In this document: positions 1-5,100 of the stretch, piece after piece
Layout: each line of letters starts with the position of its first letter
Numbering within the stretch: position 1 is the stretch's first letter
The notes under the pieces: generated by a model
Databases searched by the model: none
What the model was told of the DNA's origin: nothing
What the model saw: only the letters and a program-made list of their open reading frames with translations
Made by a program: the position numbers and the translations under genes
Origin: Dictyostelium discoideum
Taxonomy: Eukaryota
Length of the DNA: 5,100 nt
Assembly: GCA_000004695.1 (NCBI GenBank)
Contig: CH709170.1
Span: 1 to 5,100 of the forward strand
Reading direction: 5' to 3'

Positions 1-96
1 TTCTTTTAACATTCTAAAAAATTATCTTAAATATTTGGGAAATTCAAATAAATAAATGTTATTCATAATATATATATATATATGATAATATAAATT
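1..96 (-). mobile_element. DIRS-1-type left ITR, outer ~85 bp only (partial, continues past the window start); belongs to a further minus-strand copy nested into ORF1 of the next copy
   Basis: The reverse complement of 14-96 matches the outer end of the ITR at 4684-4770 (atttatattatcat(at)n attatgaataacatttatttatttgaatttcccaaatatttaagataattttttagaatgtt). The match breaks at nt ~13, inside the heat-shock element (gttaaaagaa versus gttctagaac). The ITR terminus (tgataatataaat, 83-95) abuts unrelated sequence at 97. Confidence 0.75.
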
Positions 97-782
97 GGTA
101 AGAGTACTTCAGAACCATAGATTTCTTTTGCGATGTTGTTACGACGGACACGACTAAGCGATGCTTGAGCATTAACAGCTAAGACGATTGCACTCTGAGT
201 TAAGTAACTAATAAGTTCTACATCGACATTAGAGCTATCAGATGATAACATACTTGACATGAGAAGCAAAGGTTTCAAGCTATCGTTGATTCGCTTTTCG
301 ACAATCAACAAGTCAGTATCATTGTTCTTGACGTTGGATGATACAGTAATACCTTCAGGTGTACCGAATGGAGCGACATTCACTTGGAAGTTAGATGGAA
401 AGTTGAATACTTTATTCAATTCGGATATCTCATCTTTCTTGAGGATACATTCTTCTTCGACGAGTAAACCTTGATTGTTTACCATATGTTTGTACTGACC
501 AAGTAAGGTATCGGATAATTGATAATCGGTTGGAACTTCGACATTGTTACTTGATTCATCTTCACTTTGTTCATTCTCGGTGTCAGAGTTATCATGAGAA
601 GGTTGGCTACTTGAATTGGTATTAGAAGAGAACATAGGTTCTTTCATGAATCTTGTAAAGGCTAAGGAAAGGTTGTTGATTTGATCTTCCATTGATTTCA
701 TTCTTAAATCAAAGGATTCAGCGCTATTAGAGGCAGAGGTACTACTACTAGAGGCTTCGTTATTATTAACAGTGGTAGACAT
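97..782 (-). CDS. DIRS-1-type ORF1 (putative Gag-like protein), 5' portion (~228 codons). It is 3'-truncated at ~97 by the nested ITR; the track ORF 63-782 reads through into ITR (AT)n as ...LLPIYIIIYIYIL.
   Basis: ATG at 782 lies 120 bp downstream of the inner end of a left-ITR copy in the same orientation, which is the position of ORF1 in DIRS-1. The product is Ser/Asn/Asp-rich with an acidic N-terminus. The frame is open on one strand only; the opposite-strand ORF 259-474 is a shadow. Confidence 0.6.
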
Positions 783-1056
783 ATTTTATTGTTGATATCT
801 AAAATTATAATATGAGAAAAAAAATAATAATAAAAATTAATAAAGAGAAATAATTATTTGTATAAAATTTGTGTGTGTGTGTATCTTAAATATATATAGG
901 AGGAATTCCCAAATAAAATAAATCAAATTGTTTTAGTTTTTTGTGCCACTATTTATACGTTTTTATTTTCTTAAAAATTTCGCAAAACTCAAAAAAAATA
1001 AGAGTTTTCGACCCTTTACAACTTTGTGCATAGTGTCGGTTCGGAATTTTTCAGAG
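783..1056 (-). mobile_element. DIRS-1-type left end: 5' leader (783-901) plus the inner ~155 bp of the left ITR (902-1056). The outer ~175 bp, including the heat-shock element, is missing.
   Basis: This is the reverse complement of 4862-5100, with 1-2 mismatches per 60 bp. It includes GGAATTCC (902-909) and the (TG)6 microsatellite 870-882, which corresponds to (CA)6 at 5035-5046. Identity stops abruptly at 1056/1057 (..ggaatttttcag|agaaagtaaagc.. versus ..ggaatttttcag|ttttttcgacc..). Confidence 0.8.
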
Positions 1057-1083
1057 AAAGTAAAGCAGGGGAAAACTATATTT

Positions 1084-1086
<3 letters not shown>

Positions 1087-1132
<46 letters not shown>
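1087..1132. repeat. poly(dA)46 homopolymer
   Basis: Uninterrupted A run 1087-1132, preceded by 30 nt of unique sequence that follows the truncated ITR. Confidence 0.95.
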
Positions 1133-1159: not shown

Positions 1160-1418
1160 TTAATTTATACACACAATTTCATTACCAAAAAATACTTGGT
1201 TATCGGAAATATAAACTTTAAGATTGTGGTTTTTTTCACCTTTTGAATAAATGGCTAAACTGTCAGCTACTTTTGTTCTTGTGTTACTTTTCTTATTACT
1301 TACCCATTTCGTTAACCTTTCAAAAATATTTTGACTGGTACAATCTTCGTTACTACCACCAGCTTGTTTAATTATTCCAGTAATAAAGAAATTTGAAACC
1401 TATTTATTTAAATTTAAT

Positions 1419-1456
<38 letters not shown>

Positions 1457-1720
1457 ATTAATCTGGTAACATACATCGCCATCTGAATAGTATTTACTTT
1501 GACAAACTTTCTGAAGACTTTCGTATTCCAATATGTATGTTACACGTGGGTTTGTGGCTATTTGCACTGTTTCTTGGATTGGTGGAACAGTTGGCCTTGG
1601 AACTCTTCTAATTATTATTCTCTGGTTTTCCATTGGGTTTGGAGCATTTGCATTTCCTAATACATTACCTATTGACAAATTATTAAATGATTCATCTCCG
1701 ATAGAAATATTATTGTTTTA
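1160..1720 (-). pseudogene. Unassigned reading frame of about 186 codons on the minus strand with a single in-frame TAG (1400-1402) and a K10 tract encoded by the dT run. It is either a disrupted gene or an unusual exon.
   Basis: Track ORF 1400-1678(-) is ..NPRVTYILEYESLQKVCQSKYYSDGDVCYQINSL K10 LLNLNK*. The same frame continues after the TAG as VSNFFITGIIKQAGGSNEDCTSQNIFERLTKWVSNKKSNTRTKVADSLAIYSKGEKNHNLKVYISDNQVFFGNEIVCIN*, with stop at 1160-1162. Apart from the internal TAG there are no stops over ~560 nt of ~25% GC DNA, which is unlikely by chance. Codon usage is Dictyostelium-like (A/T third positions). No ATG start was found. Confidence 0.4.
1421..1451. repeat. poly(dT)31 homopolymer, opposed to the A46 run 288 bp upstream
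   Basis: Uninterrupted T run 1421-1451. It is read as K10 by the minus-strand frame. Confidence 0.95.
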
Positions 1721-1913
1721 TCTTCTTTGGATTGGTGATTGGTTAAAATCAGGTACATTACCATTCGGTGCTATAAAATTTGCAGATGAATTCATTTTAA
1801 AAAAATATGTATTGAAATCATTTTGGCTTTTTCAGTCTGCCCGAAAATGAAAAAAAAATAAAAAAAAAAATCATTTTTTACATAACAATGTAAAAATTAT
1901 GTAAAAAAGGTTT

Positions 1914-2360
1914 TTAATTTTTTAATTTTTTATTTTTTGAAGCCGAGAATTTATCGTGGCATTTGTAAATTATAAGGTAATTGGTATCATCAATTTGAAT
2001 TGGTATAACATTATTTAGAATATTATCATATGTAATATAATTTAATTCATTTGAAAGAAAATGGTATTTATTAAATTGGTCACCAACATATTTGTCAAAA
2101 TAATTTAATAATATTGCATGTTTTATTATGTTATCATCCATTTCAATCATTGATATTGAATTGATAATACCTGACCATCTACCTGAAAGTTCATTATCTG
2201 ATGCAACTTCAACTGCATCACCAACATTGTATATTTCTTTATTATTTTTAATTGATGAGTGAAAAGTTATATTTTTATAATTTTGAAATAATGAATCTAA
2301 TTTAATTTTTATGTTATCTAAATTATCTGGATTTTTTATTTTGTATCTGGCGTGGCGGAC
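1914..2360 (-). CDS. Unassigned AT-rich ORF of 148 codons, host-like and N/K/I/D-rich. No ATG before 2150, so it is probably a 5'-truncated exon or fragment that begins exactly at the compositional boundary.
   Basis: The minus-strand frame is open from the TAG at 2361-2363 down to the TAA at 1914-1916: VRHARYKIKNPDNLDNIKIKLDSLFQNYKNITFHSSIKNNKEIYNVGDAVEVASDNELSGRWSGIINSISMIEMDDNIIKHAILLNYFDKY...KNKKLKN*. The track lists only the ATG-initiated part 1914-2150. Confidence 0.4.
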   Translation of the reverse strand, partial: VRHARYKIKNPDNLDNIKIKLDSLFQNYKNITFHSSIKNNKEIYNVGDAVEVASDNELSGRWSGIINSISMIEMDDNIIKHAILLNYFDKYVGDQFNKYHFLSNELNYITYDNILNNVIPIQIDDTNYLIIYKCHDKFSASKNKKLKN

Positions 2361-2430
2361 CTATATGCTAAAGAATACACCAGTTTTTAGGGCATACCTT
2401 AAAAGTTTCGTAACAGCAAAACGATTATTG

Positions 2431-3355
2431 TCAGCAACCTAATCTAGTGCCCTGTACCCCCCTTATTGACTTAATTAGTAAAACGTCTACGATGGACTCA
2501 TGGCCATTAATAGCAACAGCTCCTAGTGCATAATTAATTCTTTTTTGGAAATGGCCATTTTCAACAGCACATTCCAATGCATCATTGATGTTTTTTTGCA
2601 TTGCTCCGACTAATAAGGGTTTAGTAGTACATACAAATCATCTGCTAGGCAGTCTGCAGTAGTTGGGTGATTATTGCTAATAGCCAATTTTAATGCCTCC
2701 CACCTATCTTCTGCTGTAGATGATTTGTCAAAGAGGAACGCAACAATGGCATCATGGCCAAGCATAGCAGTATTTTTTATTTCCTTACCCATTTGTGCTT
2801 CTGGCATCTTTCATAGGAAGAGTTTAATAATCGAGAGGTAACCATGCGCCACATCATTTCAGAATGCTATATTGTGTTGTTCCGTTACCTTATTCGAATC
2901 TAACATGAACTTTACAATAGATATGCGCTCATTCTTGAAAGAAGATCGGGAAGAGCGATTCGGCTATGGTATCTTCTGTTGCCCTATCTAATAAGAACTC
3001 CACGATAAAAATAATTATTCTGTATAGTCGCGATTACGAGGGCCCTATTTATATTTTCTAGTGTAGCATTATTATCTAAACTTAACTTTTGTTCTACAAT
3101 AGAAAGATCATTGTTTCTATCTGCGAAATGTAGTGGTGTTTGTCCAAGATAGTCTTTTGCATTTACATCAGCTCCCTTGTTAAGGAGGAGTTGTATGGCT
3201 CCTTCTAATCTAGCATAATGGAGCGGAGTTCTGCCTCGATGATCTGTTTTGGTTATATTTTCACCTTTTTCTATAGTCAGTTTTACTTTTTCTACTGTTT
3301 GAGTTGTTATCGCTATTTTGATCAAAAAGTTTGATCTCGGTTCGAATTTTGTCTC
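2431..3355 (-). pseudogene. Ankyrin-repeat protein pseudogene with at least 3 frameshifts or stops, in a block of higher GC (~38-40% versus ~22-25% around it)
   Basis: Four ankyrin-repeat segments lie on the minus strand in different frames. Segment 1: HRGRTPLHYARLEGAIQLLLNKGADVNAKDYLGQTPLHFADRNNDLSIVEQKL (track ORF 2984-3325, TTG start is an artefact). Segment 2: ERISIVKFMLDSNKVTEQHNIAF (~2855-2925). Segment 3: AMLGHDAIVAFLFDK..ADCLADDLYVLL (2610-2807). Segment 4: NDALECAVENGHFQKRINYALGAVAINGHESIVDVLL (2434-2592). Segments 3 and 4 are joined only by a 1-nt frame change near 2610-2640. No single frame spans them. Confidence 0.6.
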
Positions 3356-3423
3356 TCAACAGGTTGATTCTTAAAAATCAAGTCTAAACTCATTGGATGC
3401 TTCGTGACTATATCTATATATTT

Positions 3424-3775
3424 AATTAAAAATTTAATTTATTAAATTATATTTTATATTAAATATATATATATATATTATGAATATCATTTATTCATTT
3501 GAATTTCCCAAATATTTAAGATAATTTTTTAGAATGTTCTAGAACATTCGAAGAATAAAAAATTTTCGAAAGAAAAGTAAAAATTTCGAACCGGCACAAT
3601 GACGCGATCATTGTGTAAGGTCGAAAAAACTGAAAAATTCCGAACCGACACTATGCAAAAAGTTGTGAAGGGTCGAAAACTCTTAATTTTTTGAGTTTTG
3701 CGAAATTTTTAAGAAAATAAAAACGTATAAATAGTGGCACTAAAAACTAAAAAACAATTTGATTTATGGAATTCC
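3424..3775 (-). mobile_element. DIRS-1-type right ITR (352 bp). It comprises a ~39-nt terminal extension absent from the left ITR (3424-3462), followed by ~313 bp shared with the left ITR. A 24-bp right-specific spacer (3776-3799) follows.
   Basis: 3463-3775 aligns with 4688-5015 at a few percent divergence, with one 8-nt indel. The shared part ends at GGAATTCC (3768-3775). The outer 57 nt are complemented by the ICR. Confidence 0.8.
3532..3553 (+). promoter_or_regulatory. Heat-shock element in the right ITR, oriented to drive plus-strand transcription, i.e. antisense to the YR gene
   Basis: GAAtgTTCtaGAAcaTTCgaAG is four contiguous alternating nGAAn/nTTCn units. A TATAAATAG is present ~190 bp downstream at 3725-3733. 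Confidence 0.65.
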
Positions 3776-3799
3776 GACTAAGTGCGGATGGGATGGGAC

Positions 3800-3884
3800 T
3801 AATATATATATATATATTTAATATAAAATATAATTTAATAAATTAAATTTTTAATTTATATTATCATATATATATATATATATA
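3800..3884 (-). other. DIRS-1 internal complementary region (ICR), 85 bp: complement of the left-ITR 5' terminus followed by the complement of the right-ITR 3' terminus
   Basis: 3800-3856 is the exact reverse complement of 3424-3480 (57/57), which is the outer tip of the right ITR. 3857-3884 (ttatattatcat(at)n attatgaa) equals the first ~30 nt of the left ITR (4684-4715). It lies immediately after the YR stop at 3885-3887. Confidence 0.8.
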
Positions 3885-4685
3885 TTATGAAATTTGGACG
3901 ACAGTATTTAAGAAACCACCAGATTTTTCACCAATGATTCTTTTATCGTAGAAGGTATCTACAGTATCATTTGATTTCCAACGACCCATCTTCTTGACAA
4001 CGTGGAACGGAACGTTATTGGACAACAGCAGAGAAGCCATAGCGGAACGGGTAGAGTGAGATTTGAACTTGGCAATATCAATGCCTGACTTTGAGAGTGT
4101 TGATAATACAATTGAATTAATATCATTAACTTGGAGCGGTTCACCCTCATTCTTAATAAAGACAGAGTCACCCGAATGGGGCTTTCTTCTTCCTTTAGAG
4201 GCTCTAAGGTATGTTGCAAGGTGGCGAACAGGGCATACTTGAGAGTTTGTATCATCTAACCATGTTAATTCTAAGATTGAAACAACACCACTTCTTTGTT
4301 CTTTAGCATTAATAACTGGACCTTTGATTGAGTCAGTAGTATTAATGAGACCTTTGAACGACCACTTCACCAAGTCTGATGATCTTGCTAAACCAAACTT
4401 TTACAGAGAACAAGTGTCTTGTTTAATAGCGCAGTGTATGTGTACTTAGGGATGACTTTGATAGTAGATAAGTGCTTGAATACTTGGTTTGCATCCCATA
4501 TCTCTTTATACTTTGCAGATGAAGGACGCCACTTGTGAATACCAGTCATTATTCTTGTGATGAATGGATCATTAACAACATCAGTTTGATTCCTAACTGG
4601 AGCTATATACTTTGAGAGTGGAAGGTTCCCAAGACTTCATTAACAGCTCAGCTGTTTTTGTATTTGTTGTACGAGCGAAGGACAT
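3885..4685 (-). pseudogene. DIRS-type tyrosine recombinase (YR), near full length (~266 codons) but split over three frames
   Basis: Frame A (4685-4596): MSFARTTNTKTAELLMKSWEPSTLKVYSSS*. Frame B (4636-4401): ..IMTGIHKWRPSSAKYKEIWDANQVFKHLSTIKVIPKYTYTALLNKTLVLCKSLV*. Frame C (4400-3885; track ORF 3885-4373): FGLARSSDLVKW..SQVCPVRHLATYL..KFKSHSTRSAMASLLLSNNVPFHVVKKMGRWKSNDTVDTFYDK. These contain the YR hallmarks: N-terminal TLKxY, the L..K..LL.L....R.SDL box (broken by the second frameshift), CPV..L..YL, and the catalytic H-x-x-R ... GRW ... Y. Confidence 0.8.
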
Positions 4686-4764
4686 TTATATTATCATATA
4701 TATATATATATTATGAATAACATTTATTTATTTGAATTTCCCAAATATTTAAGATAATTTTTTA

Positions 4765-4786
4765 GAATGTTCTAGAACATTCGAAG
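4765..4786 (+). promoter_or_regulatory. Heat-shock element of the left ITR (sense promoter of the downstream element)
   Basis: gaatgttctagaacattcgaag is identical to the HSE at 3532-3553, with perfect GAA/TTC pentamer phasing. Confidence 0.65.
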
Positions 4787-4958
4787 AATAAAAAATTTTC
4801 GAAAGAAAAGTAAAAATTTCGAACCGGCACAATGACGCGATCATTGCACAAGGTCGAAAAAACTGAAAAATTCCGAACCGACACTATGCACAAAGTTGTG
4901 AAGGGTCGAAAACTCTTATTTTTTTGAGTTTTGCGAAATTTTTAAGAAAATAAAAACG

Positions 4959-4967
4959 TATAAATAG
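4959..4967 (+). promoter_or_regulatory. TATA-like box (TATAAATAG) inside the left ITR
   Basis: It lies in a GC-poor context ~45 bp upstream of the ITR inner end. Its distance from the HSE (~175 bp) is longer than in typical heat-shock promoters, so the assignment is tentative. Confidence 0.3.
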
Positions 4968-5100
4968 TGGCACTAAAAACTAAAAACAATTTGATTTATT
5001 TTATTTGGGAATTCCTCCTATATATATTTAAGATACACACACACACAAATTTTATACAAATAATTATTTCTCTTTATTAATTTTTAATATTATTATTTTT

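Follow-up and report, generated by a model that had tools for sequence, protein, structure and literature searches.

What is a kilobase of GC-richer DNA holding a broken ankyrin-repeat gene doing among the centromeric transposons of Dictyostelium discoideum, and where did it come from? The block in question occupies positions 2345-3423 of a 5,100-nucleotide stretch (positions 1 to 5,100 of contig CH709170.1, assembly GCA_000004695.1; hereafter the window), which is part of a D. discoideum DIRS-1 cluster at a DIRS-1-rich chromosome tip. The initial annotation had proposed a decayed host gene, a passenger fragment of a mobile element and laterally acquired DNA as possible origins, and it is the last of these that gained support: we regard the block as probably the distal remnant of a bacterial chromosome fragment of at least 1.77 kb, likely from an intracellular bacterium, which is decaying in centromeric transposons. 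This reading is carried by a second copy of the block at a locus on another chromosome (L001), which retains an insertion sequence (IS) remnant of the bacterial IS5 family beside the same ankyrin gene, by the intracellular-bacterial relatives of that IS, and by the lack of a host parent gene.

A frame-broken ankyrin-repeat gene at a centromere

The window matched the independent chromosome-scale assembly GCA_054883475.1 (CM142509.1) at 99.6% identity and with the same junctions to DIRS-1 and to an AT-rich repeat on the other side, placing the locus 41-62 kb from one end of a 6.43-Mb chromosome. The centromeres of D. discoideum are DIRS clusters, one at a single tip of each chromosome (PMC2665215), and this copy of the block lies in such centromeric transposon repeats.

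The block stands out from its surroundings in composition, with 37.0% GC relative to 24.4% in the AT-rich unit on its left (1132-2344) and 21.0% in the right end of DIRS-1 (3424-3884), a step of about 6.6 standard errors; GC at third codon positions (GC3) was 21-32% in the block versus 15% in the neighbouring AT-rich open reading frame (ORF). GC content is even throughout the block and no AT-rich intervals interrupt it. Both edges are sharp and fall where the jump in GC had been placed, at 2345 and 3423: on the left, the homology of the AT-rich unit to a paralogous locus (L083) ends exactly at 2344, and on the right the natural DIRS-1 right terminus '...AAATTTTTAATT' meets the block at 3423/3424. 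A search for terminal inverted or direct repeats or a target duplication at the block found none, and the short flanking direct repeats that had been suggested as a check are likewise absent; the internal direct repeats at 2500-2598 reflect ankyrin periodicity.

On the minus strand the block reads as a member of the ankyrin-repeat proteins by its matches to Pfam Ank and Ank_2, with the reading frame distributed over several pieces (Table 1). The longest open piece (2984-3325) matched Ank_2 with an E-value of 2.1e-17 (63.9 bits) and Ank with 7.6e-14 (51.5 bits), scores above the gathering cut-offs of 27.3 and 21.1 bits, respectively. Taken alone the other pieces in the window gave weak matches (E = 3e-4 to Ank_2 for the 2613-2939 piece, and 0.016), but a frame-corrected reconstruction of 342 residues, taken mainly from the L001 copy with its distal part from the window, matched Ank_2 in four stretches (E = 2.4e-25, 89.3 bits) and by eye contains about nine to eleven repeats. 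Within the block, the gene breaks off at the piece spanning 2364-2438.

The coding pieces follow one another in three frames (3325-3008; 3006-2932; 2939-2862, 2858-2814 and 2807-2613; 2622-2434; 2438-2364). The ankyrin frame changes at least four times, and two internal stops interrupt it. This bears out the earlier recognition of minus-strand ankyrin units in at least three frames. It had also been considered that the frameshifts might prove to be intron boundaries in an intact host gene family, which is not what we found: neighbouring pieces abut or overlap by 1-9 nt, and relative to the paralogue the breaks are indels of 1, 2, 5 and 9 nt plus point stops. Because the pieces abut or overlap and the GC content is even, these breaks are not introns.

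A second copy and its IS5-family remnant

The second copy, L001, is located within the terminal 15 kb of another chromosome, also a DIRS-1-rich tip; two copies in all were seen. Window positions 2573-3427 align to L001 5129-4256 with 90.3% identity when gaps are counted, and the 838 aligned sites contain 33 substitutions (3.9%; 15 transitions and 18 transversions) in addition to eight indels. Two lesions are common to both copies, namely the frame change after the 2932-3006 piece into the KNERISIVK piece and the stop at 2811-2813 after KLFL, which indicates that the gene was dead before the duplication. Two others are confined to the window, these being a 1-nt insertion near 3011, which breaks a frame that in L001 continues into IVEFLLDRATED, and the stop at 2859-2861, where GGA in L001 reads TGA. 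The substitutions are distributed 10/3/10 across the codon positions, and since first positions are hit as often as third ones purifying selection is not evident; the block shows no sign of present function and appears to decay neutrally. We also saw that the ankyrin frames differ at 23 of 726 sites (3.2%), less than the spacer upstream of them (window 3326-3427, L001 4252-4375), where 10 of 112 sites differ (8.9%) and indels of 6 and 20 nt occur, the numbers being small.

The two copies overlap without being coextensive. Below 2573 nothing in L001 corresponds to the window block, the L001 copy being truncated there, and at the other end L001 reaches 656 bp further upstream than the window copy, which starts at the equivalent of L001 4252-4256, just beyond the IS remnant. 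This additional upstream part of L001 contains the 5' half of a bacterial IS5-family insertion sequence, comprising its left terminus and a stop-riddled orfA. In the two-ORF type of IS5-family element an orfA with an HTH_Tnp_4 domain is followed by an orfB with DDE_Tnp_4, and such elements are found in Parachlamydiaceae, Rickettsia, Legionella, Dependentiae and Wolbachia. The translation of L001 3848-4247 aligns along the full length of 145-residue bacterial orfA proteins of this kind (HTH_Tnp_4), with identities of 61-73% within a 14-sequence alignment and 63-75% across search matches by BLASTP. It matched Pfam HTH_Tnp_4 (PF13613) with an E-value of 7e-15 (54.7 bits, cut-off 27) and the NCBIfam IS5-family model NF033581 with 4e-17 over profile positions 5-133 of 285, the latter score staying under the whole-protein cut-off because only half of the protein is present. 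At the nucleotide level, a profile built from 65 bacterial IS copies (nhmmer) matched L001 3868-4236 with an E-value of 5.8e-73.

The transposase N-terminus can be read in one frame as ...LLMTLEYL*EYRTYFHVASNYGISESACYRNIKWVESTLVKRPDSS*PGKKALLKKEMEYELVLIDST*SPIQRPKK, orfA as a whole contains five stops, and nine of the 60 columns that are invariant in bacteria are changed. The left terminus, TAGACTTGCATAACC, lies at L001 3809 and corresponds to bacterial termini of the form TAGA(C/T/G)(T/C)TCTTGCATAACC, with the bacterial left end TAGACTTCTTGCATAACC sitting exactly where multi-copy bacterial elements diverge from their flanks. The nucleotide profile match stops at model position 519 of 1034, at an A7 run, the site of the frame shift into orfB in bacterial copies. 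The orfB/DDE half (DDE_Tnp_4) was looked for in L001 and the window by tblastn and with a profile made from 39 bacterial orfB sequences, neither of which gave a significant match, and no copy of the IS right end within four mismatches was found in L001. One candidate, in which 'KFEPRSNFLIKIAI' would represent the orfB C-terminus 'RFGLRFNLIAAIYN', was rejected, since this stretch lies across the first ankyrin repeat, read in a different frame, and its profile score was below zero. The left terminus, the spacing of the 5' untranslated region, the full-length orfA homologue and the end at the A run agree with a two-ORF IS5-family element (NF033581), from which L001 differs in having five orfA stops and in that neither an orfB/DDE half nor a right terminus was found; judged by its sequence, the L001 element is a truncated remnant and not a complete IS.

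Upstream of the remnant are 218 bp of flank with no open frame on either strand. GC content is 37% in the block, 37% in the IS remnant and 35% in this flank, and bacterial loci carrying the IS have 31-39%. The ancestral order would have been about 218 bp of flank, the IS left terminus and orfA cut at the A7 run, a spacer of about 90 bp and an ankyrin gene of at least 340 codons. By rough arithmetic the decay of orfA exceeds the approximately 2% per lineage that separates the two copies, from which it would follow that the transfer predates the duplication.

Gene annotation in this region calls for caution. In GCA_054883475.1 protein-coding genes are called over dead pieces at L001 3643-4779 and 4916-5815 and at locus L084 7402-7811; P0001 (223 residues) joins orfA fragments of the IS to ankyrin repeats across frames, P0249 (233 residues) starts within the ankyrin block and continues into a RT_RNaseH domain of Skipper type, and at L084 a 110-residue model covers pseudogene pieces. 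All three models are likely annotation artefacts. Directly after the truncated ankyrin block, L001 5133-5396 on the plus strand holds an 87-residue ORF (36.5% GC) with a match to Pfam TPR_19 (E = 8e-5) and, by eye, a likeness to the TPR/HAT region of the splicing factor PRP6; it is followed by Skipper-like RT_RNaseH and chromo-integrase pieces. This ORF looks like a stray host-gene-like fragment in the centromere.

Origin of the block

The best 80 genomic loci matching the IS belonged to Parachlamydiaceae, Rickettsia endosymbionts, Legionella, Dependentiae, Wolbachia, Holosporales, Finniella, Mycoavidus and Francisellaceae, with orfA identities of 65% in Parachlamydiaceae, 64% in a Rickettsia endosymbiont and 66% in Dependentiae. 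Among plasmids the best matches were in Fukatsuia, Spiroplasma and Legionella and were annotated as 'IS5 family transposase'. The closest sequence of all, at 75% identity at both the protein and the DNA level, was on a metagenome contig whose neighbouring genes are bacterial (IS110 and a RelA/SpoT-type HD domain). We also noted that dozens of copies of this IS5-family element, nearly identical to one another, occur in the genome of the Rickettsia endosymbiont of Bradysia coprophila (L004-L026), which is thus well suited as a reference for where exactly the element ends on either side.

For the ankyrin part, the only strong protein match was P0001, the D. discoideum gene model at L001, and beyond the paralogue's own gene models there was no D. 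discoideum protein among the best 120 of 3138 matches nor in an exhaustive search. No host parent gene was found in searches of 5.8 billion and 1.84 billion proteins. Word-indexed and exhaustive HMMER searches, tblastn against plasmids and a viral scan for a donor all returned generic repeat similarity only, and a similar ankyrin gene beside the IS was represented among the 80 bacterial loci by one weak match with 35% identity. Searches of NCBIfam gave weak, sub-threshold matches to the Dot/Icm effectors AnkH and AnkY.

With these results, the IS part has the features of laterally transferred bacterial DNA, embedded in the chromosome and reproducible between assemblies, and the ankyrin part would belong with it by linkage. 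We infer a bacterial origin for the ankyrin part because it is continuous with the IS and its flank, is uniform with them in composition, lacks introns and has no host parent. The fragment would have entered the nuclear genome of the D. discoideum lineage from an intracellular or phagocytosed bacterium and may have been integrated by end-joining; the ankyrin gene and the IS appear to have arrived together from one donor, given their contiguity, their uniform GC content of 35-37%, the absence of introns and the lack of a host parent gene. Copying between centromeres would then have taken place by exchange, and the window copy would have lost its IS part either through DIRS-1 integration or through a deletion of 0.66 kb. 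The lost half was absent within 7.3 kb beyond the DIRS-1 copy (L084). An AATT is common to the junction of the window copy with DIRS-1 and to the intact site, which fits a recombinase crossover site or microhomology alike.

An IS beside ankyrin-repeat genes is typical of obligate intracellular bacteria of amoebae and arthropods. Chlamydiae and Amoebophilus are endosymbionts of wild D. discoideum today (PMC8518690), which makes a source of such a kind plausible. We suggest, tentatively, that the block might be a molecular fossil left in the D. discoideum lineage by an obligate intracellular symbiont, whether chlamydial, rickettsial, legionellal or Dependentiae-like, that has been lost or is unsampled.

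Several observations weigh against a bacterial origin of the block. It is the paralogue that carries the bacterial signature, which reaches the ankyrin part through linkage, there being no IS-derived sequence in window 2345-3423 by the nhmmer IS profile. Possibly, too, the IS half was captured separately from the ankyrin gene, as another fragment. ORFs of DIRS-1 in the same window also have 36-38% GC, so that GC level alone is no marker of foreign DNA here. The candidate donor lineages tie at about 62-66% identity and the IS itself is exchanged among intracellular bacteria, for which reason no donor can be named. For the ankyrin part, the search for its closest protein that the initial annotation had called for does yield P0001 as the nearest match but did not settle its taxon: the best matches outside Dictyostelium have 28-53% identity over partial lengths, and an exhaustive HMMER search with 65 non-canonical residues recovered the paralogue's gene model and then a weak mixture of rhizobia, insects and lichen fungi. 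With matches so weak and taxonomically mixed, the taxon of origin is not independently established.

Another explanation is that an ordinary Dictyostelium ankyrin gene gave rise to the block, as a decayed paralogue that drifted into the centromeric repeats, with the IS an unrelated neighbour of the L001 copy. Ankyrin repeats are common in eukaryotes, the ankyrin part shows no clear taxonomic affinity, and the centromere does hold stray host-like pieces, such as the PRP6-like ORF at L001 5133-5396. We nevertheless consider such a paralogue unlikely, as no candidate parent emerged from the D. discoideum proteins in the searches described above, the gene lacks introns, its GC and GC3 values depart from those of the AT-rich ORF beside it, and the block runs on, without a physical break or a change in composition, into a bacterial IS and its flank. 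We think it quite improbable that the source was a giant virus or some other virus that infects amoebae. Amoebae are hosts of such viruses, which are ankyrin-rich and sometimes carry bacterial-type insertion sequences, and ankyrin proteins of giant viruses often have repeats in the style 'A..NGH..IV..LL'. However, a viral contig collection contained only 11 orfA relatives, with at most 56% identity versus up to 66% in bacterial genomes and 75% in the metagenome contig, and the viral scan found no viral relative of the ankyrin reconstruction.

It is less credible still that some uncharacterised Dictyostelium mobile element moved the block to two chromosomes, as a passenger or as one of its own internal parts. 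This origin, a passenger form of which was among those first proposed, has in its favour the two copies on two chromosomes, each beside a DIRS-1 right end, but the DIRS-1 right terminus adjoins the copies at different internal positions, 656 bp apart in the block, no more than two copies were seen, and each is truncated at its outer end against a different sequence. The lack of terminal repeats and of a target duplication also speaks against it, as does the DIRS-1 replication model, in which exact ends are restored from the element's internal complementary region (ICR) without carrying flanking DNA (PMC7192593). Bacterial-type sequence in eukaryotic assemblies is often a contaminant, yet contamination or a chimeric assembly is barely conceivable given the same junctions in an independent assembly, two paralogues 3.9% apart, and five orfA stops with multiple ankyrin frameshifts, which are unlike a live contaminant.

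Flanking elements and significance

Table 1. Features of the 5,100-nucleotide window, in order of position
Feature	Positions	Strand	Remarks
DIRS-1 pieces	1-1085		ORF1 63-782 on the minus strand, plus long terminal repeat (LTR)
A run, 44 nt	1088-1131		between the DIRS-1 pieces and the AT-rich unit
AT-rich unit, 5'-truncated	1132-2344	minus	ORF tail 1914-2344 and a second gene from about 1795
Breakpoint between truncated ankyrin pseudogene and 5'-truncated AT-rich repeat	2344/2345		match to L083 ends at 2344
GC-richer block	2345-3423	minus	3'-truncated, frame-broken ankyrin-repeat pseudogene and about 95 bp of upstream spacer
Last ankyrin-like piece, VADNNRFAVTKLLRYALKTGVFFSI	2364-2438	minus	ankyrin-like by eye only; ends at stop 2361-2363
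Piece KPLLVGAMQKNINDALECAVENGHFQKRINYALGAVAINGHESIVDVLL	2434-2622	minus	frame of 2932-3006; weak Pfam Ank_4 and Ank_3 matches
Third-frame pieces FKNERISIVKFMLDSNKV..., NDVAHGYLSIIKLFL and MPEAQ...GHDAIVAFLFDK...ALKLAISNNH	2613-2939	minus	two in-frame stops
Ankyrin helix piece IVEFLLDRATEDTIAESLFPIFFQE	2932-3006	minus	second frame
Longest open piece, 113 residues	2984-3325	minus	two canonical ankyrin repeats (GRTPLHYA...LLLNKGADVNAKDYLGQTPLHFA); Pfam Ank_2 and Ank
Internally deleted DIRS-1 copy	3424 to window end (5100)		continues into an LTR at 4684-5100
Natural 3' terminus of DIRS-1 right LTR	3424-3480	minus	inverted complement of ICR 3802-3860
Contiguous 3' part of DIRS-1: tyrosine-recombinase pseudogene, ICR, right LTR	3424-4596	minus	96.7% identity to L083 3176-2004

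On its left the block abuts the AT-rich unit, whose open frame at 1914-2360 has no start codon, as previously described. Window positions 1200-2344 are 93.4% identical to L083 11174-10074, and in both L083 and L001, where the paralogues of the unit have 93% and 68% identity, respectively, homologous element sequence continues upstream of the equivalent of 2344 for at least 0.8 kb. The unit matches five D. discoideum proteins with 78-95% identity and no others, and its second gene has an in-frame stop near 1720 and a GT..AG intron (GTATGT...TAG) near 1400-1460. It is multi-copy, Dictyostelium-only and centromere-associated, and is probably a candidate DNA transposon of the DDT class, elements which make up about 20% of centromeric DNA (PMC2665215). 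The initial annotation had suggested that the block was inserted into, or fused to, a pre-existing gene. There is indeed a junction, at which two truncated fragments meet, but the AT-rich ORF is not a host gene; it forms the tail end of the multi-copy, Dictyostelium-only unit. The stop at 2361-2363 separates the two fragments in frame, and 2344/2345 is a breakpoint, neither a gene fusion nor a simple insertion site.

On its right the neighbour at 3424 is the genuine terminus of a DIRS-1 right LTR, as had been proposed: it stops at the same nucleotide as other outer copies, and its complementarity to the ICR matches the published structure, in which this applies to the right LTR's terminal 55 nt (PMC7192593). 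After the terminus '...AAATTTTTAATT' a different sequence follows each outer end and TATATTATCATA follows in the ICR copies; four outer copies share the DIRS-1 end '...TTTTTAATT' and then run on into unrelated sequences. The DIRS-1 copy itself is internally deleted, the part at 3424-4596 with its frame-broken tyrosine-recombinase ORF being joined via 4594-4686 to an LTR at 4684-5100, and an LTR scrap at 1-95 is inverted relative to that LTR. The A run is uninterrupted and separates a DIRS-1 left-LTR piece from the AT-rich unit, in whose orientation it reads as T, so it is not the poly(A) tail of the unit. Searches for tRNA genes, Rfam families and flanking direct repeats came back empty.

We found no published report of the fragment in a literature search, which did not cover the 2005 genome paper and the 2001 repeat paper. 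The closest parallels are nuclear insertions of endosymbiont DNA, such as those of Wolbachia in insects and nematodes (PMC3998919, PMC4558871), which are likewise non-functional, contain IS and ankyrin remnants, lie in repeat-rich chromatin and decay by frameshifts and stops; unlike them, the fragment described here has a social amoeba as host, is at least 1.8 kb in size, is present in two copies in DIRS-1 centromeres and lacks a matching living symbiont genome. Sixteen candidate bacterial transfers have been listed in D. discoideum (PMC3188802, Table 2), all of them intact with orthologues in D. purpureum and some with known functions. The proposed direction, from bacteria to the nuclear genome, is the same, but none of the sixteen is an ankyrin gene or an IS, whereas the block is a dead centromeric fragment. 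The pseudogene, with its multiple repeats, no other domain, an adjacent IS and 35-37% GC, also resembles the ankyrin effector genes of intracellular bacteria (Ank/Leg of Legionella and the ANK genes of Wolbachia, Rickettsia and Amoebophilus; PMC3563639), but the likeness is generic to the repeat, no orthologue was found, and an effector role or secretion is not inferable.

The importance of the block is historical and genomic rather than mechanistic. A practical warning follows from P0001, P0249 and the 110-residue model at L084, which show recent annotation calling genes over pseudogene pieces. The fragment is also a datable marker, with paralogues 3.9% apart; strains and sister species can be scored for having or lacking it, which could serve the study of past symbioses and of exchange between centromeres. 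The genes that Dictyostelium is known to have gained from bacteria are old, intact and domesticated (PMC3188802), and transfer of raw symbiont DNA is well documented for Wolbachia in animals and scarcely so for amoebae. If the block is indeed such a symbiont fossil, no earlier case would be on record of symbiont DNA passing, without function, into a social amoeba's nucleus, and a dead IS-plus-ankyrin fragment would show raw DNA of intracellular bacteria reaching, and persisting in, the nucleus of a model phagocyte. It would further suggest that the DIRS-1 centromeres act as a sink in which foreign DNA is tolerated, copied between chromosomes and preserved.

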